Positions 1-42,743 of a stretch of 42,743 nt of DNA are shown piece after piece; positions within the stretch are counted from its first letter, which is position 1; each line of letters starts with the position of its first letter. The stretch is taken from sequence record ON470579.1. One strand, given 5' to 3'. Under the pieces are notes generated by a model, which saw only the letters and a list, made by a program, of their open reading frames with translations, did no database searches and had not been told where the DNA came from. A program made the position numbers and the translations under genes. The DNA is from Escherichia phage vB_EcoM-606R2.

Positions 1-549
<549 letters not shown>

Positions 550-561
550 CTATGCTTTACT

Positions 562-1197
562 CTATTCCAGTTGCTGGAGTTCACCGCGCGGGGTTACTCG
601 CCAACGATGCTGACAGAAATAAAGCAGCGGGTTGTCCTGATTACTGTCGCTATAGCCACTGTACAACCGCAGTGGCGTGCCGATTTTACGCTCCAGTTGC
701 GCGACCTTCTCATGCCCGAGGCAACGCATCGTCAATACCCAACCACCATAGCCACGCTGAATCTGACTGGCGATAAGATTAACCCGCGGCAGCCAGGGCG
801 TATCGAAATAAACCGCTTCAACCAGCGGCTGCGGAGAGCCGGTAATCAACCAGATATCAGCATCGGAACTTAACAGGTAGGTGGTTAATCGCTCCTGAAC
901 CAGCGGAAAGGCGGTAACATTGTCACGAAACCAGCGTACGAAATCGGCCTGCAACGCCTGCAAACGCGCTTCATTGTGACCAAAAGTGCATCCCCACAGA
1001 AGCAGACTCATCGGCCAGCGTGCCGCACGGCCTTTTATCAATAACGCAATGGCTATGATCGGCAACAACGGCAGGACAAGCAACGCATTCAGCGGTTGGC
1101 GCCGCAGTAAATAACGCAAAAAACTGCCGAACATATCCTGCTGATGCAATGTTCCATCTAAGTCAAAAAACACCACACGACGCTCGTGAGTTGCCAA
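562..1197 (-). CDS. pgpC: phosphatidylglycerophosphatase C, HAD-family membrane phosphatase
   Basis: 211-aa ORF with the HAD motif FFDLDGTL and hydrophobic segments. Its position between tadA and yfhH matches the E. coli K-12 gene order as recalled. Confidence 0.82.
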   Translation of the reverse strand: MATHERRVVFFDLDGTLHQQDMFGSFLRYLLRRQPLNALLVLPLLPIIAIALLIKGRAARWPMSLLLWGCTFGHNEARLQALQADFVRWFRDNVTAFPLVQERLTTYLLSSDADIWLITGSPQPLVEAVYFDTPWLPRVNLIASQIQRGYGGWVLTMRCLGHEKVAQLERKIGTPLRLYSGYSDSNQDNPLLYFCQHRWRVTPRGELQQLE

Positions 1198-1405
1198 ACC
1201 ATACTCCTCTGGACTGAAACATCCTGATTAATTTTCGCTACTACATAGCCTAACAGATAGATCATCACTTTTCCGGCAACAATCGACCGCATCATGGCTA
1301 ACTGGAATTTTTAATTCATGGAAATTAGCGGCAATGGAATATAAAATTCACTCGCGTTTGTCTCATATTGCCTGTTGTCGCCACTATTTCATCGCGAGGA
1401 AAGAT

Positions 1406-2254
1406 ATGAACGGCTTACTTCGTATCCGTCAGCGTTACCAGGGGCTTGCCCAGAGTGATAAAAAACTGGCGGATTATCTGCTGCTACAACCTGATACGGC
1501 GCGCCATTTAAGCTCTCAGCAACTGGCCAACGAAGCCGGAGTCAGTCAGTCCAGCGTCGTGAAGTTCGCGCAAAAACTCGGCTATAAAGGTTTTCCGGCG
1601 CTTAAGTTGGCGTTGAGTGAAGCGCTGGCAAGCCAGCCGGAATCGCCCTCCGTGCCCATTCATAACCAAATCCGCGGTGATGATCCGTTACGGCTGGTCG
1701 GCGAAAAACTGATTAAAGAAAATACTGCCGCTATGTACGCAACGCTAAACGTTAATAGTGAAGAGAAACTGCATGAATGCGTAACAATGTTGCGCTCTGC
1801 GCGGCGGATAATTCTGACCGGTATTGGCGCTTCGGGTCTGGTGGCGCAAAACTTTGCCTGGAAGCTGATGAAGATTGGCTTCAATGCTGCCGCAGTGCGC
1901 GATATGCATGCGCTACTCGCTACCGTACAGGCGTCGTCCCCTGACGATCTGTTATTAGCCATTTCTTACACCGGTGTACGACGCGAGTTAAACCTGGCGG
2001 CAGATGAGATGCTGCGAGTGGGCGGAAAAGTGCTGGCGATTACCGGCTTTACTCCGAATGCCCTGCAACAGCGTGCTTCTCATTGCCTGTATACCATTGC
2101 CGAAGAACAAGCGACAAACAGTGCTTCAATCTCTGCTTGTCACGCGCAGGGAATGTTAACGGATTTGCTGTTCATTGCGCTGATTCAGCAGGATCTGGAA
2201 CTGGCTCCAGAACGTATTCGTCACAGTGAAGCGCTGGTGAAAAAACTGGTCTGA
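1406..2254 (+). CDS. yfhH: RpiR/MurR-family transcriptional regulator (HTH plus SIS domain)
   Basis: Track ORF 1334..2254; the likely true start is the ATG at 1406, preceded by GAGGAAAG. The translation has an N-terminal HTH and a C-terminal SIS-like region, and sits in the K-12 position of yfhH. Confidence 0.8.
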   Translation: MNGLLRIRQRYQGLAQSDKKLADYLLLQPDTARHLSSQQLANEAGVSQSSVVKFAQKLGYKGFPALKLALSEALASQPESPSVPIHNQIRGDDPLRLVGEKLIKENTAAMYATLNVNSEEKLHECVTMLRSARRIILTGIGASGLVAQNFAWKLMKIGFNAAAVRDMHALLATVQASSPDDLLLAISYTGVRRELNLAADEMLRVGGKVLAITGFTPNALQQRASHCLYTIAEEQATNSASISACHAQGMLTDLLFIALIQQDLELAPERIRHSEALVKKLV

Positions 2255-5733: not shown

Positions 5734-6542
5734 TTAGCCCTCACCAGAAAGTTAAATGCAATATTTCGCGGTCTGACGGCAACAAAATTCACACCATCAC
5801 CCACAGAGTTACTGGTGAAATTAAATCGTGAAAATCCTGGCTGATTTCCGGCGATACCATCATGAAAATTAATTGTGTGGCCCGCACCATCGCCTATATT
5901 CCCGGCAAACTGAGAAAAGTTTGTAGCTGCCTGCCAGCTTAATAATTCGCGACCACCGTCTGCACCTCGCCCGTCATCCCAGATACGAATGAAATCACCG
6001 CGGGCTTCAGGTAATACCAGCGAAGGAAACACTTTCGCCAGCACAGGGTAATCAGAGGCAGAAAATTTCGCCCCGTTAAACTTCAAAAACACCATACCGG
6101 ACCAGCTGTCGATGACAGAATTTGGCATTGCAGCGGACGGCCAGAAGAACGGAACGCCAATAGCTGGGGCACCTTCTCCCAAACCAAGGTTTTCGAGAGC
6201 TGTTTTCACCGTGCCGTCCGATTTGATATCGCCAAACGGATTCTTGCGGCTCAGGTATTCAACAGCAAACCCCGATCCCAGCAATTCAACAAAACCGGGC
6301 AGATCACCATTATCAAGCACATCCCGTTGCGTTTTATCACTTACAAACTGGGCCAGAGCTGCAGCAATAAAGCTGGCCTGCCGAATAACCTTATTGACTT
6401 GCGCACTGGAGGCTTTCCCTGCTGTAAATCCAGATAAAAGCGCGGGCAACGCTTCCCATTCCTCCTGCGATATAACATTGGCATTTCGATCCGTTGCAAA
6501 CGCTTTAAAGTCATTTTTCGCCATCAGAGTAATACTCCCCAT
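5730..6542 (-). CDS. tail fibre protein (constant N-terminus plus variable C-terminus)
   Basis: 270-aa ORF at the end of the baseplate operon; it contains the crossover site and is followed by an assembly gene. Confidence 0.7.
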
Positions 6543-7204
6543 GCTCCTACATCAAAACCACTGATGAATTCGTTATCCATATCAAAACCAAAAAATTTTG
6601 AGCCTTCCGATGGGGTTTCCACCGAAGGTGTTTCAATGCCACCCGCCCATACCCCGGCGGCTTTTACTGTGAGATACCCCTGTTTAATTGCCGCAATTAA
6701 CTCACGCGATACATCTGAAATATCAGTATCAGGAAAGACCCAGACCGATATCGTCATGTCCTGGTTATCGACTATCTGCATTCGCAGCCCGGATCCTGCT
6801 GTTGCCGCGTCAAGAATTGCCGGAAGCGAATCATTCCGTCCGTCCCAGTTATTAATCGCAATCTTCGCTTTAAGAATGACACGATAAGTTTCATCGCTGA
6901 GATACATGTATCCTGAATCAGGATCGTATGGTCCCTGCCATACCCCCTGATCATATCCAAGCCCGTCGGTATCCCAGCTGAAATAGACACCTGAGATAGG
7001 CTGGCTGACAACACGGCTACGTCCGATCCACAATCCAAGGATGTCAAGTTGCACACCAACCGCAGAGTCAATATCAAATGCACTAATCAGCCCTCTGGTG
7101 GCAGCCGCAACATCAATAAGTGGCCGGGTCATCAGATCAACATGCGCAAGAAATTTAGGTTTGGTGGCGTGGTAGTTCGTGATTAGTTCGGTGTATTTGC
7201 TCAT
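6524..7204 (-). CDS. baseplate/tail protein (Mu gp48 / P2 gpI-like)
   Basis: 226-aa ORF between the J-like baseplate gene and the tail fibre; call rests on position and size. Confidence 0.5.
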
Positions 7205-8400
7205 GACTCCACCGTTATAACGATATTTTTCGGGGTACAGGACGCAGATTCGTTGTATCTGATATCAATGTTTGATGACGACAAAGCCCCCGGGGATTTC
7301 CCAATCGTCAGTTCCTGAATATCGTAATAGCGTGCATTCCCGCCACTCACCACGCCAAGATTCGCCGGTGAGTAAATGCGACTTAAAAGGACCGAATCAC
7401 CAATCATCAGACTATTGATATAGTCGGAAATAGCCTGCTGGATCTGCTGCCCTATCTGTGAGGTATAACCCGTAAAAACTTTTAATTTAATCAGGGCATA
7501 AACAGGCACATCACTGGAACGCGAGAATTTGATTACATGGGGATTGCCGTATTTATCCGGAACCGTAACGGATGTTGTACCGTGAGTGGCTGTCCCCTGG
7601 CCTTTATTCCCTCTGATAGCCTGAGCAATATCCGTTACATCACCGCCATCCACAATTACAGCAACAGAGTGTGGCGGTAACCCGTTACCGTCCTCCGAAC
7701 CAGTATCGTTTTCATAGAGTTTGTGGCGGGTTACACCGGTAACATTAGAAACAGCACCATCCAGTGCTTCAAATGGGGTTATTGATGGCAACGCAACACT
7801 TTGCGACTGGCGGATACGTAACTCAGCGTCAGTTTCTGCCGGAGTGCCCACAGTGGCTGCAGCAGGATTGGTTACCGAAACCCAGCCACGGGTTGGCGTA
7901 TTAATTTCAGTGATAGTTCCAGCCAGCGCCGCCACTGCACCACTGACGGAACATGTTGCGGTCACCATCACTGTACCATCCACGCCTACCACCACTGAAG
8001 CAGGCAAACGCCATATCACATTATTACTGTCTTTCACGCTGCCATTAATGATGGTTGTTCCGGCAGTTCCTGTAAGAAGCAAATCAACCGTAGAGTTCGT
8101 CGCGCCTTTACGTGAAATACCATTTATTTTCACGTTACAGGTCAGTGCAGCCCCATAGCCGGTTGCCGGTGAAAAACAGTTGTAGACAGTTATCGCAGTA
8201 TTATTGGCATCATGAATCGCCAGCGCCATCAGAGCCACCATCTGGCCGTCTTTGCTGTCCGGTTCGAGGTAGGCATCACTGCCATAAATCTGCTGAAAAT
8301 AGCTAATCAGGGTGCTGAGTATCGTCTGATAATCAGGCGCACTGATCCCCTCCGCGGTTACCTTTGCAGATAAACCGAGAGAATCAAGGTTCAGAGCCAT
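7201..8400 (-). CDS. baseplate J-like protein
   Basis: 399-aa ORF in the conserved baseplate order W-J-I-fibre. Confidence 0.6.
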   Translation of the reverse strand: MALNLDSLGLSAKVTAEGISAPDYQTILSTLISYFQQIYGSDAYLEPDSKDGQMVALMALAIHDANNTAITVYNCFSPATGYGAALTCNVKINGISRKGATNSTVDLLLTGTAGTTIINGSVKDSNNVIWRLPASVVVGVDGTVMVTATCSVSGAVAALAGTITEINTPTRGWVSVTNPAAATVGTPAETDAELRIRQSQSVALPSITPFEALDGAVSNVTGVTRHKLYENDTGSEDGNGLPPHSVAVIVDGGDVTDIAQAIRGNKGQGTATHGTTSVTVPDKYGNPHVIKFSRSSDVPVYALIKLKVFTGYTSQIGQQIQQAISDYINSLMIGDSVLLSRIYSPANLGVVSGGNARYYDIQELTIGKSPGALSSSNIDIRYNESASCTPKNIVITVES

Positions 8401-8753
8401 TACGCCTCCGATGTAACAGTCGTTATTCCATAAAGAGTGTCGATTTCAGCGGAAAACATGACACGTCGGGTCGTGGTATCCAGCGTCGTATTGAAAGAGA
8501 GGATTGATTTAACGCCCTGCGTTTCGAGGATGCGCTTACGGATCGCCAGGTTGTAGGTTTCCGGCTTCTGCTTACCGAGTACGGACTGGATCCACGGAGT
8601 CCCCTCGGTGGTGTCGAGAAACCATTGCCCATACCACAATTCGAATCGCGTTTTTACCGCCTGCGCCACGGCCTCCGGTGAGTTAATCAGCCAGGTGTCA
8701 TCACCGCTGCCAAAGGTGTAATCGCCATCGGCGTCTTCACGTCTGTATCGCAT
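8400..8753 (-). CDS. baseplate protein, gpW / GP46-like
   Basis: 117-aa ORF immediately upstream of the J-like gene, with coupled start/stop overlap. Confidence 0.55.
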   Translation of the reverse strand: MRYRREDADGDYTFGSGDDTWLINSPEAVAQAVKTRFELWYGQWFLDTTEGTPWIQSVLGKQKPETYNLAIRKRILETQGVKSILSFNTTLDTTTRRVMFSAEIDTLYGITTVTSEA

Positions 8754-26721: not shown

Positions 26722-27081
26722 TTACTCCTTAGAGCCACCAAACTTGTTACCGATTACTCGCATTGCAGCCCCACGAATAGCATCGACACCGATCAGCCCA
26801 ACACCACCACCAATGGCAACAGAAAGCGATTTAGGCCATCCGACATACTCAAGAGCGGATGCAAAAGTCAGCGTCAGAGCACCACAGAGCAAAATCTCAA
26901 GCGTTTTTCGTTTCCAGCCGCCGCCACCGCCAAAATAGGCAATGCGCAAGCCAGCCATAACAATTGACATAACCACTGCGCCCAACGGCGTATCTCCACG
27001 CCACCAACTTTGTAAGAGTTCCAGTAAGTCAGGCCAGGAATGAGGAGCATTGTGCATTTTCATACTTCCCACCTCCGCCAT
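26722..27081 (-). CDS. holin
   Basis: ORF with hydrophobic transmembrane segments and a glycine run, directly upstream of the endolysin. Closely spaced Met codons near the N-terminus suggest holin/antiholin dual starts. Confidence 0.6.
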   Translation of the reverse strand: MAEVGSMKMHNAPHSWPDLLELLQSWWRGDTPLGAVVMSIVMAGLRIAYFGGGGGWKRKTLEILLCGALTLTFASALEYVGWPKSLSVAIGGGVGLIGVDAIRGAAMRVIGNKFGGSKE

Positions 27082-27163
27082 TACGGGGTGTTGTTGAAAG
27101 GCGGGCCCTGCGTATACGCCCGTAGGATTGGGTTATGAGCCGTCCTTCGGTGGGCCCTGAATA

Positions 27164-27187
27164 CAAAAAAAGTTCGCCATAGCGAAC
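27164..27187 (-). terminator. intrinsic terminator between Q and holin (tR'-like)
   Basis: Perfect palindrome GTTCGC-CATA-GCGAAC followed on the minus strand by TTTTTTT, about 85 bp upstream of the holin start. Confidence 0.5.
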
Positions 27188-27595
27188 CTTGTTAAATTTG
27201 TTAAAAAAGGAAGTTATTTAACATAATGTACGTTATAGGAACCACACGATCCCCGCTCGCAATAGATTTGCGATGAAAGGCCTATTTAATCAACTTAAGT
27301 GGTCCAGAATGACGAAATTCGAGTGAATAAAAGGTGCATAAAAAAGGGCAAAAACTGCATAGCGTTTTTTCGCAGCGAAAGCCCTGTTTTATTAACTTTT
27401 CCCCAGAATGGGGCAATAAAAAAGGCCCCCTTGCGGAAGCCTCTTCGTGATGAACTGTTTTCAACAGATATCAGGCTAATCGGCTTTTTGGAATTCCACA
27501 ACTATTTTTTATCTTACCTTGATACCTGAAGCCGTCAGGTGTTTACGGCAATCCTGAATACCATCTGATTCCCTTACGTGATTGATTACTGGATA

Positions 27596-28018
27596 TTATG
27601 CCGCCGGGCAGCTCCTTCGCAAAGTCCTGATAGCCTTAGGCTTTGACTGAACTGCTTGATCCATTTCCAGAACCACGTCCAGCATAGCCAGGCAGCCGTC
27701 GATAAATCCCTCTGCAGCCTGGAGCCTCTTCAGAACTTGAGTGTGTGATACGCCGAGCTTCACACCCATAGCCCTCACAGGCATCGCCTGGATGTAATGC
27801 CACTCAAGGAGCGTACACAGGTACGGATCTTTTTTCTTCAGGCAGTTCATAGCAGAGCTGATGATCAGACCGTCATTGTCACTGCACTTCAGCCGCCCGG
27901 CTTGCGTTGCAGGTAGCAGATTCTTAAATCCAGCGGAAACAGGTGGATAGTAGACACTGCAACCTTCGCTCGCAGCCCAGCCCCCCCATCGCTCTAAAAC
28001 CAGTCGAATATCACGCAT
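27596..28018 (-). CDS. late-gene antiterminator (Q-like)
   Basis: The N-terminus MRDIRLVLERWGGWAA resembles recalled Q-family antiterminators of lambdoid prophages, and the gene lies directly upstream of the lysis cassette. Confidence 0.55.
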   Translation of the reverse strand: MRDIRLVLERWGGWAASEGCSVYYPPVSAGFKNLLPATQAGRLKCSDNDGLIISSAMNCLKKKDPYLCTLLEWHYIQAMPVRAMGVKLGVSHTQVLKRLQAAEGFIDGCLAMLDVVLEMDQAVQSKPKAIRTLRRSCPAA

Positions 28019-38873: not shown

Positions 38874-39635
38874 ATGCAGGAACTAACTGAAATGCCGATC
38901 AACTATCCATACCCGAGAGAATCTTTTCCTGACTTTTTGAGGGAGTGTGGGTTCACCAATTTTTCCCACGAACAGCGTGAGACTTATGACTGCTATCGTT
39001 TAACGAATGGCGTAATTGTTAACCTTTACACCACCCGGACCATTCAGTTTCAAGGGAACCCTCAAGAACGTCCCAATGTTGAAACTGCAATAATGTCCCA
39101 TTTAGGAACGCCCCCCACGGCAACACCACTAGCCGTAGAACAGCCATCTGAGCTTCCCAAAAAGATATTCATTGTTCACGGCCATGACCATACTGCAAAG
39201 GAACAACTTGAGCTAATCCTTCATAAACTTGGATTACCAGACCATTTCATTTTGCAGAATACGGGAGGGACTGGACTCACCATTATTGAAGAGCTTGAAC
39301 GTGAAATTGGGCAAGGACAAACTGCTACTCGTTTCGGGATTGTTCTTTTGACACCTGATGATATGGGATACTCAAAGCGCGCCGGTGAAGCAGAAATCCA
39401 ACCCCGCGCAAGACAGAACGTTGTACTCGAGATGGGTATGCTTCTTTCGTCCTTAGGGCGCAGCAATGTAGCAATCCTTCAGAAACAGCACCTAGAACAG
39501 CCTTCTGATGCTAACGGGATTTTGTATCTGAATTTCAACGACCATGTACGTGAAACAGTTCCTCGTCTAGTGCAACGGTTACAAAATTCTGGTTTCGAAT
39601 TTACACAAGCTCAAATAGCTAACGCTTCCTCGTAA
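38874..39635 (+). CDS. TIR-like domain protein (COG4271 / Cap12-type TIR-like fold) with an unknown N-terminal domain
   Basis: The C-terminal region has the pattern KIFIVHGHD ... FGIVLLTPDD ... RARQNVVLEMGMLL ... PSD, recalled as typical of the TIR-like nucleotide-binding family. Not confirmed by search. Confidence 0.55.
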   Translation: MQELTEMPINYPYPRESFPDFLRECGFTNFSHEQRETYDCYRLTNGVIVNLYTTRTIQFQGNPQERPNVETAIMSHLGTPPTATPLAVEQPSELPKKIFIVHGHDHTAKEQLELILHKLGLPDHFILQNTGGTGLTIIEELEREIGQGQTATRFGIVLLTPDDMGYSKRAGEAEIQPRARQNVVLEMGMLLSSLGRSNVAILQKQHLEQPSDANGILYLNFNDHVRETVPRLVQRLQNSGFEFTQAQIANASS

Positions 39636-41348: not shown

Positions 41349-42743
41349 ATGCCCCCAAAATATATACCTCGCCCCTACCAAGTTCTCATTATCAACCACG
41401 AAACCGAAACCCTGCGCGGCAACATCTGGGCGGGGATGGGAATGGGTAAAACCGTGGCAACGCTCACTGCGCTGGAAGATCTCTTTATGGCAGGGGCAGA
41501 AACATGCCCCGCACTGGTCCTCGCGCCGCTGCGCGTGGCTGCCAGCACATGGCCGGATGAAGCACTGAAGTGGGGACATTTGCGCAATATCGAGGTGCAG
41601 CCAATTATTGGTAATGCCAAAGCGCGCTCTATGGCGCTGACGAACAGCAACGCAAGCGTGTTCACCATCAACTACGATAACCTTGTCTGGCTGATTGAAG
41701 AATTGGGAGAACGATGGCCGTTCGGTACTGTCATTCCAGATGAAAGCACCCGGCTAAAATCCTTCCGGCTGCGCGGTGGTGGTAAGCGCGCGGCGGCGCT
41801 GGGCAAAGTGGCGCATAAGTATGTCCGGCGCTGGATAAATCTCACCGGTACGCCAGCACCGAACGGCCTGGTAGATTTGTGGGGACAATCGTGGTTTGTG
41901 GACCAGGGGCAACGTCTCGGGCGCACTTACGGCGCGTTTACCTCACGCTGGTTCAACTCGATACAGTTTCCGGGGCAGAGCTGGACCAAACTGGAGCCTT
42001 TTGCTCACTCACAGGGTGAAATACAGCGAGCGTTAGCCGATGTAACCCTCTCGCTGGATGCGGCCGACTGGTTCGATATCAAAGACCCCATCCATAACGT
42101 AATCCGCGTGGATATGCCACCGAAGGCCCGTCAGCAGTATCGTGAAATGGAAAAGGAAATGTTCCTCGAGCTGAATGGCGAAGGCATCGAAGCACCGAAC
42201 GCCGCGGCAAAGACACTGAAGTGTCTGCAAATCGCCAGCGGCGCAGTATACACAGATGACACCGGAAGTTGGTCAGAACTGCATGACACCAAACTACAGG
42301 CGCTGGACAGCATACTGACCGAAGCAGCTGGCGCACCTGTGCTGGTTGCTTATCACTGGAAACACGATCTTGAACGCTTGCTTAAAGCATTCCCTCGCGG
42401 TCGTCACCTCGACCAGGATCCACAGACACTGCGCGACTGGAATTCCGGAAAGATTCCTGTTCTCTTTGCACACCCAGCCAGCGCGGGCCACGGCCTGAAC
42501 ATGCAGGACGGCGGAAATATACTGGTATTTTTCTCACACTGGTGGGACCTGGAGCAATATCAGCAAATTATTGAACGTATCGGCCCCACCAGGCAGATAC
42601 AGGCCGGACACAATCGTCCGGTATTTATTCACCACATTATTGCTGCCGACACTATGGATGAAATGGTGATGGAGCGGCGCAACTCAAAACGAACAGTGCA
42701 GGACATCCTGCTCGATGCCATGAAAAAGAGAGGTATAGCATGA
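41349..42743 (+). CDS. SNF2/DEAD-like DNA helicase
   Basis: Motif I GMGKT, a PRPYQ-type Q motif, motif II DEST and C-terminal helicase motifs; ribosome-binding site AGGAG. Confidence 0.75.
   Translation: MPPKYIPRPYQVLIINHETETLRGNIWAGMGMGKTVATLTALEDLFMAGAETCPALVLAPLRVAASTWPDEALKWGHLRNIEVQPIIGNAKARSMALTNSNASVFTINYDNLVWLIEELGERWPFGTVIPDESTRLKSFRLRGGGKRAAALGKVAHKYVRRWINLTGTPAPNGLVDLWGQSWFVDQGQRLGRTYGAFTSRWFNSIQFPGQSWTKLEPFAHSQGEIQRALADVTLSLDAADWFDIKDPIHNVIRVDMPPKARQQYREMEKEMFLELNGEGIEAPNAAAKTLKCLQIASGAVYTDDTGSWSELHDTKLQALDSILTEAAGAPVLVAYHWKHDLERLLKAFPRGRHLDQDPQTLRDWNSGKIPVLFAHPASAGHGLNMQDGGNILVFFSHWWDLEQYQQIIERIGPTRQIQAGHNRPVFIHHIIAADTMDEMVMERRNSKRTVQDILLDAMKKRGIA

Follow-up and report, generated by a model that had tools for sequence, protein, structure and literature searches.

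What occupies the 532 nt that separate the Q-family antiterminator gene from the holin gene (27595..27064) in Escherichia phage vB_EcoM-606R2? The window analyzed here is the complete 42,743-nt stretch of record ON470579.1, and the late genes discussed below lie on its minus strand. The original prediction described the gap as late control DNA in which a late promoter, a short leader RNA and a hairpin terminator are arranged for override by a Q-like antiterminator. From comparative sequence analysis we conclude that the gap is probably a composite late-operon leader, of which the largest element appears to be a recombination site of the psi/cer type for the host Xer recombinases and through which Q would allow transcription to proceed. 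The module with this predicted Xer site makes up most of the gap.

Results

Gene neighborhood of the gap

The minus-strand late genes occur in the order Q-family antiterminator, lambda-type holin, endolysin, Rz, terS and terL. Both genes that flank the gap had been named in the original prediction and were borne out by domain matches. The antiterminator gene (27596..28018, minus strand, 140 aa) matches PF06530, the Q21/933W family, with an E-value of 8e-41 and 139 bits. Against solved structures its top match was Q21, with very weak similarity (E = 0.04), and the geometry of a Q-binding site is therefore not transferable. The holin gene (26722..27063, minus strand), the first late gene, matches the lambda family PF05106, is annotated as holin in ON470588 and has an MKM dual start. 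Its longest ORF begins with an ATG at 27081, while the annotated MKM start is at 27063. The window is a prophage of the Escherichia phage vB_EcoM-611R5 type, and the gap sequence used as query is 100% identical to that of ON470588. In E. coli host chromosomes the prophage is integrated beside yfhL and carries its own tyrosine integrase at the yfhL end. No tRNA-like element had been recognized in the region, and a tRNA search was likewise empty.

Shortly after the Q gene lies the remnant of a phiTE_015-family gene (27509..27564, minus strand) with its middle deleted. The remnant ATG (27564) now starts a 9-codon frame, MVFRIAVNT followed by a stop, with which the last 17 codons of the remnant (27562..27509) are out of frame. 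The remnant encodes GIQDCRKHLTASGIKVR followed by a stop, in perfect agreement with the C-terminal end of the 113-aa gene that relative L002 has intact. A second inverted repeat that had been noticed in the gap, ACCTGA..TCAGGT, is present inside this remnant (27540..27524, minus strand), about 5 nt from where it had been placed, but its folding is not significant (z = −1.5, with 18 of 200 shuffles as good). At this position L002 has only synonymous third-codon differences, and these break the pairing. The inverted repeat is a by-product of the gene remnant.

Two further reading frames in the gap were rejected. The 38-aa plus-strand CDS of the ON470588 annotation (27334..27450) crosses the first terminator and the accessory region described below and is considered spurious. 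The second, a 21-codon hydrophobic ORF (27360..27295), has no ribosome binding site; its length is conserved because indels are absent.

Intrinsic terminators

The predicted hairpin followed by seven T residues proved to be real. This terminator, T3 (27165..27190, minus strand), lies 26 nt after the Xer core and consists of GTTCGC (27187..27182), the loop TATG, GCGAAC (27177..27172) and T7 (27171..27165), so that hairpin and T-run together span 27187..27165. A terminator scan assigned it a 9-pair stem. Its folding energy of −10.4 kcal/mol (z = −3.65) was equaled by none of 200 shuffled sequences. It ends 83 nt short of 27081, where the longest holin ORF has its ATG, and 101 nt short of the MKM start (27063). 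When the T3 helix was followed in 7 distinct relatives, 100% of the cells were paired, compared with 36-71% in slid controls; the changes comprised one double replacement of C-G by U-A, several G-U pairs and one inserted pair. Because the helix is kept with compensatory change in these 7 relatives, T3 is a maintained intrinsic terminator.

A stronger terminator that is nearer to Q had been overlooked. T1 (27415..27446, minus strand), the first terminator after Q, has the sequence GGCTTCC GCAA GGGGGCC followed by T6 and a folding energy of −17.1 kcal/mol. T1 and T3 are the two good intrinsic terminators of the gap. An Rfam search judged by E-value returned only terminator-type hairpin look-alikes for T1. 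At the corresponding position every other Q allele examined is followed by an unlike hairpin with a T-run, and a mosaic joint is located at T1. The third structure, T2 (27338..27392, minus strand), pairs AAAACAGGGC with GCCCTTTTTT in a long-range hairpin with an interrupted stem; it belongs to the accessory region and looks like a terminator on both strands (−18.3 kcal/mol, z = −3.1). Its stem is symmetric (CAGGGCG/CGCCCTG) in most relatives and is absent from the group that carries the module between terS and terL (the terS/terL group). Terminator-like motifs as a class were not enriched, with 5 found versus 2.9 ± 1.5 in shuffles. The leader as a whole folded better than its shuffles (z = −4.0).

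A predicted XerC/XerD core between T1 and T3

The stretch between T1 and T3 contains a 28-bp sequence (27243..27216, minus strand), also overlooked before, that has the anatomy of an Xer site, i.e. two 11-bp arms around a centre of 6-8 bp. It is composed of a XerC arm GGTTCCTATAA (27243..27233; 8/11 identical to dif), the 6-bp central region CGTACA (27232..27227) and a XerD arm TTATGTTAAAT (27226..27216; 11/11 identical). With up to 3 mismatches allowed, the dif arms gave this one match in the window and no match in 100 shuffled sequences. The inner 5 bp of the arms, TATAA and CATAA, are palindromic at 4 of 5 positions in the window and at 3 of 5 in many relatives with GGTAA.

According to published rules for Xer sites, the XerD arm shows stronger conservation than the XerC arm and the central region is not conserved. 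The core family behaves in this way: 95 unique relatives have a single XerD arm, which was partly fixed by the regular expression used in the search, 19 forms of the XerC arm and 16 central regions, all of 6 bp. When a profile of the module was searched with nhmmer against plasmid pSC101, the only match was psi (6745-6820, E = 5.7e-10). The alignment reaches about 40 nt into the flank on the XerC side, where both sites have GTGGCGAGTG in common, and with the core removed the nhmmer profile gave no significant match to psi.

A further line of evidence comes from insertion sequences. In relatives L019, L043, L073 and L145, elements of the ISKpn21 family, transporter ISs with a 467-aa transposase and an extra ORF, are located at a distance of exactly 5 bp from the predicted XerC arm and have a target duplication of 5 bp. 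ISKpn21 has been published as a dif-targeting IS that inserts 5 bp from the XerC arm, and its placement here appears to provide an indirect but independent check on the predicted core. By analogy with the known sites we infer that XerC and XerD bind and recombine the DNA at this position. A sigma-54 or sigma-28 reading of the 3′ conserved block, which is the Xer core, was made by eye and rejected; GCCGATAA occurs in a subset of the sequences only.

Since dif-like sites serve filamentous, gokusho- and double-jelly-roll (DJR) phages for integration, and since the XerD arm is that of dif, the core could be regarded as the attachment site through which Xer recombination integrates the phage at the host dif, as in IMEX-like elements, or else as an inert relic. 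We consider this very improbable. The core is internal to a prophage that resides next to yfhL and has its own tyrosine integrase, an arrangement that differs from that of an IMEX. All 148 places in E. coli are on chromosomes, and those examined have Q upstream and holin downstream. If the core were an inert relic, an invariant XerD arm and a 160-nt flank would not have been kept in 95 or more distinct sequences that come from at least 10 genera of enterobacteria.

The conserved accessory-type region

In 70 non-redundant sequences a block of about 160 nt is conserved on the XerC side of the core only (27244..27404, minus strand). This is the side of the accessory sequences in cer and psi, where about 180-200 bp adjoin the XerC arm. 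Alignment with psi covers roughly the proximal 40 nt, and the distal part is without detectable homology to it. The block contains three in-phase direct repeats of TAT(G/T)CA on the minus strand (27361..27356, 27340..27335 and 27329..27324), spaced 21 and 11 bp apart; counted from the core, they occupy the stretch 118 to 81 nt upstream. The two 3′ repeats read TTATGCACC and TTATTCACT. The invariance of the repeats is partly by construction, as the pattern of the first scan fixed two of the three; all three are kept in Klebsiella phage Mulock, which was found independently.

Sites of the psi/cer type are described as having an ARG box or an ArcA box about 90-105 nt from the core. In the plasmid sequences, the upstream distance from the core is 114 to 97 nt for the ARG box of cer and 99 to 81 nt for a TGTTA-type direct repeat of psi, probably the psi ArcA site. 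Neither an ARG box with up to 3 mismatches nor a TGTTA-N6-TGTTA ArcA box was found in 27244..27404. Because these boxes and distal homology to psi are lacking, a dependence on accessory proteins is argued from position only. Each of TTATGCACC and TTATTCACT agrees with the DnaA box TTATNCACA at 8 of 9 positions, and the 2 bp between them correspond to the spacing in DnaA arrays. The window contains no other tandem match of this kind, which has 2 mismatches; since 37 of 100 shuffles match at ≤3 mismatches, the match is not significant by itself, and the DnaA boxes are a lead only.

On the plus strand, the scan picked up a promoter-like sequence, TTGTTA-18-CATAAT (27198..27227). Most groups conserve the hexamers, which are degenerate in the terS/terL group, and the spacer is of fixed length and variable sequence. 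The module might be read accordingly as an RNA element, either a structured cis-regulatory leader or a small RNA of about 160 nt, antisense to the late leader, that starts from this promoter on the plus strand and is ended at T2. Besides the hexamer conservation, the symmetry of T2 and the good folding of the whole leader agree with such a reading, as does the hairpin with T-run of the terS/terL group, which in our reading of the alignment is functional in the antisense direction only. Rcd, made from within cer, provides a precedent. We nevertheless regard it as unlikely. RNAalifold found no consensus structure in the 70 module sequences (−0.88 kcal/mol) and no Rfam family matched the module; recognition at the DNA level is therefore indicated. 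Furthermore, the −10 hexamer is simply what the invariant inner XerD arm gives in the reverse direction, and the −35 hexamer, which is lost in the largest subgroup, lies within an inverted copy of the outer XerD arm (27205..27199), part of an inverted repeat that psi also has. The motif is thus sufficiently explained by the Xer core and its downstream inverted repeat. An RNA element would be compatible with an Xer site and is not an alternative to it.

Distribution and genomic contexts

BLAST searches found the Q-holin gap in 146 of 5426 complete E. coli genomes, with matches that break at T1 and at the gene remnant. A pattern search located the module in at least 120 viral contigs and in 12 species-representative genomes. 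All pattern matches are from Enterobacterales save one metagenome-assembled genome, which is probably contaminated, and the genera besides E. coli include Citrobacter, Enterobacter, Klebsiella, Hafnia, Yersinia, Pantoea, Rahnella and Trabulsiella. The window contains one copy of the module, and the orientation of the module is always that of the late genes.

Q alleles whose proteins are only 31-40% identical are followed by the same stretch, which extends from T1 to just before T3. The module occurs in four intergenic contexts: after Q; between terS and terL, for example in Hafnia phage yong1, where it lies >3 kb downstream of that phage's own Q-holin gap; between terL and portal in Klebsiella phage Mulock, which has a lambda O/P replicator; and after a 91-aa HTH gene other than Q in phages with unrelated head genes. 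These four positions and the divergence of the associated Q alleles indicate an autonomous cassette, not a Q-specific promoter or Q-utilization site. A late promoter or a Q-binding site inside the module was rejected on the same grounds. The positions of the module coincide with the classical mosaic joints of the late region. In a scan with the core only, many other Xer cores were found in viral contigs. The phages of the terS/terL group carry a second Xer site, of the ArcA-box type, 3.9 kb downstream, and their terL-portal-MuF segment lies between the two different sites.

A single-copy element of fixed orientation that adjoins a terminase gene in three of the four contexts could in principle be a pac or cos packaging site, and its phased repeats with A-tracts, together with the 8/9 matches of TTATGCACC and TTATTCACT to the DnaA box, could suggest an origin with DnaA-box or iteron-like repeats. 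Both have little probability and were rejected, as the module is unlinked to any one terminase or replication module. It is associated with unrelated head and terminase genes, and group C has no homologue of the present TerL within 9-12 kb. The replication modules are likewise unrelated, with Prim-Pol/DUF5906 here versus lambda O/P in Mulock, and the tandem DnaA-box match is not significant. The published Mulock announcement is silent on the ends of the genome. Moreover, a packaging site or origin leaves the perfect XerD arm, the match to psi and the targeting by ISKpn21 unexplained.

The late promoter

The only minus-strand promoter candidate found by the scan is a sigma-70-like pR′ sequence, TTGCGA-16-CATAAT (27595..27622), that overlaps the Q stop codon and matches the consensus at 9 of 12 positions. 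The other variant of the same Q allele reads TTGCGT-16-CATAAT, and conservation could be judged from these two variants only. By inspection there is no −10-like or conserved xAxxxT pause element in the first 30 transcribed nt, and no Q-binding repeat is identifiable in the leader. The assignment of 27622..27595 as the late promoter is weak. Of the features of a Q-dependent cassette, a Q-family gene directly upstream and intrinsic terminators before the first late gene are present. As the sole candidate promoter lies 400 nt upstream of T3, it is T1, not T3, that a transcript would meet first.

The arrangement originally envisaged places the late promoter within the gap, immediately before the hairpin, and has a short leader RNA end at T3, which acts as the tR′ that Q overrides. 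T3 is indeed a conserved terminator directly before the first late gene. Xer cores can overlap with promoters, as shown by Pcer in cer, which produces the small RNA Rcd, and by eye a weak TTGCGA-19-TATAAC can be aligned across the XerC arm. The scan, however, found no sigma-70-like promoter on the minus strand just upstream of T3 or anywhere between T1 and T3. The TATAAC hexamer, preceded by a 19-nt spacer, is replaced by GGTAAC, CGTAAC or CGCAAC in relatives. Phages of the L004 type and of the terS/terL group have the same upstream module and lack T3, and in yong1 the module is remote from the gap after Q. A promoter in this position is accordingly rather improbable, and the layout as stated is unlikely. 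What stands of the original prediction is a leader of the late operon, for lysis and packaging, located 3′ of a Q-family gene and containing a conserved terminator. The stretch from T1 to the hairpin, previously seen as control DNA specific for Q, has the features of an Xer site and also occurs away from Q.

It is reasonable to consider T3 as one of several terminators that Q must override. Because the conserved T3 has to be passed by any late transcript, read-through by a Q-modified polymerase can reasonably be expected. On the minus strand the leader would then consist of the candidate late promoter at the Q stop codon, the dead gene remnant, T1, about 160 nt of accessory-type DNA, the 28-bp XerC/XerD core, T3 and about 100 nt of holin 5′ UTR. 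Both the identity of the promoter and the read-through by Q are proposed here by analogy to known Q systems. Without Q, transcripts from the Q end would stop at T1, giving an RNA about 170 nt long, and T2 and T3 would act as reserve terminators; since transcripts would end at T1, the Xer site would be untranscribed and the lysis genes would be silent. With Q, polymerase would pass T1, the Xer site, T2 and T3 and reach the holin gene.

Discussion

Comparison with known systems

The closest known counterpart of the predicted phage site is psi of pSC101, of which the core reads GGTGCGCGCAA GATCCA TTATGTTAAAC in the plasmid sequence. Both cores are 28 bp long with a 6-bp centre, and the XerD arms are one base apart (TTATGTTAAAT versus TTATGTTAAAC). 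The psi XerC arm GGTGCGCGCAA itself is found in 8 sequences of the phage family. The two sites further share GTGGCGAGTG, which lies 12-25 nt upstream of the core, and downstream of the core the outer XerD arm recurs in inverted orientation. Both have conserved DNA on the XerC side, in which a direct-repeat motif is arranged in phase about 90-100 nt upstream. The repeat is of the TGTTA type in psi and TAT(G/T)CA in the phage, and the distal accessory DNA is not homologous. While psi resides on a small plasmid, the phage carrier is an integrating tailed prophage of about 45 kb in which the site lies within an operon leader, between two terminators.

The likeness to cer of ColE1 is more general. 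The plasmid core reads GGTGCGTACAA TTAAGGGA TTATGGTAAAT, and the module profile gave no match to cer. Both are accessory-type Xer sites with a box, sequence-specific in cer, about 100 nt from the core, and in both a promoter or promoter-like sequence overlaps the region for recombinase binding. The 8-bp centre of cer, its XerD arm TTATGGTAAAT and its ARG box have no equivalents in the phage site.

Compared with E. coli dif (GGTGCGCATAA TGTATA TTATGTTAAAT, a sequence string present in PMC3025954 and PMC3603311), the phage site has an identical XerD arm, a central region that is also 6 bp long and a XerC arm with the 8/11 identity given above. The phage site differs by its conserved 160-nt flank and by its location in a prophage far from the terminus. 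Chromosomal dif functions at the terminus without an accessory arm and in dependence on FtsK.

The lambdoid Q cassettes of lambda, 21 and 933W have the same order of a Q-family gene, a promoter (a candidate in our case), intrinsic terminators and then lysis genes. In contrast to these cassettes, the phage leader has no identifiable pause element or Q-binding repeat, holds a predicted recombination site and a gene remnant, and has two to three terminators instead of one. Finally, there is a resemblance to the pdif modules of Acinetobacter and to IS1202-family elements. Xer sites are located at module boundaries, an ISKpn21-type insertion occurs 5 bp from the XerC arm, and some relatives have two different Xer sites around terL-portal-MuF. 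Unlike pdif modules, the two sites in these phage relatives differ in their central region, and mobility of the segment is not indicated.

Proposed recombination

These comparisons support as the best reading that the site belongs to the psi/cer class of dimer-resolution sites and is placed in a late-operon leader with terminators on both sides. Sites of this class need PepA and act independently of FtsK. By analogy to cer and psi, host XerC and XerD would bind the core, while PepA and a sequence-specific partner would bind the TAT(G/T)CA repeats, in the slot taken by ArgR or ArcA in cer and psi, and wrap the accessory arm. Synapsis would then be restricted to sites in direct repeat on one supercoiled circle; for this reason we propose that circular dimers of the phage genome would be converted to monomers, before integration or in episomal carriage. 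The benefit of dimer resolution is not obvious, since the carrier is an integrating prophage with its own integrase and not a small plasmid. Packaging of the phage is presumably by the headful mechanism, which would need concatemers.

Use of the Xer system has been described for plasmids, chromosomes and filamentous, gokusho- and double-jelly-roll phages, the small phages among them integrating at dif. In the literature searched, also by sequence string, we found no report of a psi/cer-like Xer site in an integrating tailed phage, although such absence is not proof. A broader idea, which we offer tentatively and consider rather doubtful, is that tailed temperate phages have, as portable junction elements, Xer sites with accessory arms of their own. 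Such sites may be gated by transcription, being active while the late operon is silent and off under Q-driven transcription, so that concatemers become available for packaging. They may also serve as site-specific crossover points at which co-resident phages swap gene modules, like the pdif modules of Acinetobacter. In place of ArgR or ArcA, DnaA or some other direct-repeat-binding protein may serve as the accessory factor.

For annotation, the present case is a warning that a long, seemingly empty gap between Q and holin genes need not be DNA for transcription control. If the site is active, these phages would rely on the XerCD of the host for control over the multimer state of their genomes, and the accessory arm would represent a third type beside those that bind ArgR and ArcA. 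Activity of the site would also explain the landing of a dif-targeting IS in prophage late leaders, and site-specific exchange of modules between phages would be a possible route.

Inverted arm copies and a second Xer site

Past the core of the module, at a distance of 7-9 nt downstream, the outer XerD arm recurs in inverted form (TGTTAAA..TTTAACA; window 27199-27223). This inverted copy is common to the module family, to the family of second Xer sites found in related phages and to psi of plasmid pSC101 (L129), where the same arrangement at about 6800-6830 reads ATGTTAAAC gggcga GTTTACAT.

Where the module separates terS from terL, the phage has another Xer site, different from the first, in the same orientation about 3.9 kb downstream. 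Such pairs were found at 2427 and 6321 in the relative L021, at 1590 and 5803 in L014, and also in L030 and many others. The second site has the core GGTGCGGGTAA GAACCC TTATGTTAAAT and is preceded by an ArcA-like box (TGTTA-N6-TGTTG) 99 to 84 nt upstream of it. Module and second site together bracket terL, the portal gene and a MuF-like gene.

A DnaA-box array upstream of a dif-like core was observed in small viral contigs of 4-8 kb (L149, L153, L163, L166, L183 and about 12 more). The array consists of three perfect DnaA boxes in tandem (CTGTGGATAAC x3) with a period of 11 bp, and the dif-like core, AGTGCGTATAA CACCCA TTATGTTAAAT, follows at a distance of ~110-130 nt. Similar arrays in contigs L158 and L225 are nearer their cores.

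Insertions at the module

The relative L145 contains an ISKpn21-family transporter IS at 6176-8460, encoding a 467-aa transposase and a 214-aa ORF, and members of this family also lie beside the module in L019, L043 and L073. In all four, exactly 5 bp separate the IS from the module's XerC arm, and the insertion is flanked by a 5-bp target duplication, which is CGCGT in L145. The insertions are spread over four different module subtypes; one of the modules hit is located on a 77-kb Enterobacter plasmid bearing the entire phage.

The region between Q and the core

Window 27509-27564 is what a deletion has left of a phiTE_015-family gene of 113 aa. In relatives the gene is intact and is found between Q and the terminator T1, in a stretch of the late leader that would be unterminated. 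On the minus strand a small hairpin, CCCC-N5-GGGG, occurs at 27401-27413 and is followed by AAAAGTTAATAAAAC. It is restricted to the after-Q context of the module, and its stem is constant whereas the loop varies (CCCCATTCTGGGG vs CCCCGTTCAGGGG). The sequence GTTAATAAAA is similar to an ArcA half-site but is positioned ~155 nt upstream of the Xer core. A hydrophobic ORF of 21 codons (MQFLPFFMHLLFTRISSFWTT; 27295-27360, minus strand) lacks a ribosome-binding site and is probably a by-product of the accessory region; its length is unchanged in the relative L004 (79% identical), where it reads MQFAPCFMHDLFTCFCRFQSA.

Extent of the deposited genome

The deposited 'complete genome' (the window, and likewise ON470588) is a prophage excerpt, with end regions at window 1-2254 and 41349-42743. 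One end carries host genes (an rpiR/yfhH-like regulator, pgpC and tadA), and the other breaks off at the SNF2 helicase gene, before reaching the integrase that is present in E. coli chromosomes. Amid the early and replication genes, 38874-39635 (plus strand) encodes a CAP12/Pycsar effector-type protein with a TIR domain (PF10137), possibly a defence or counter-defence gene.
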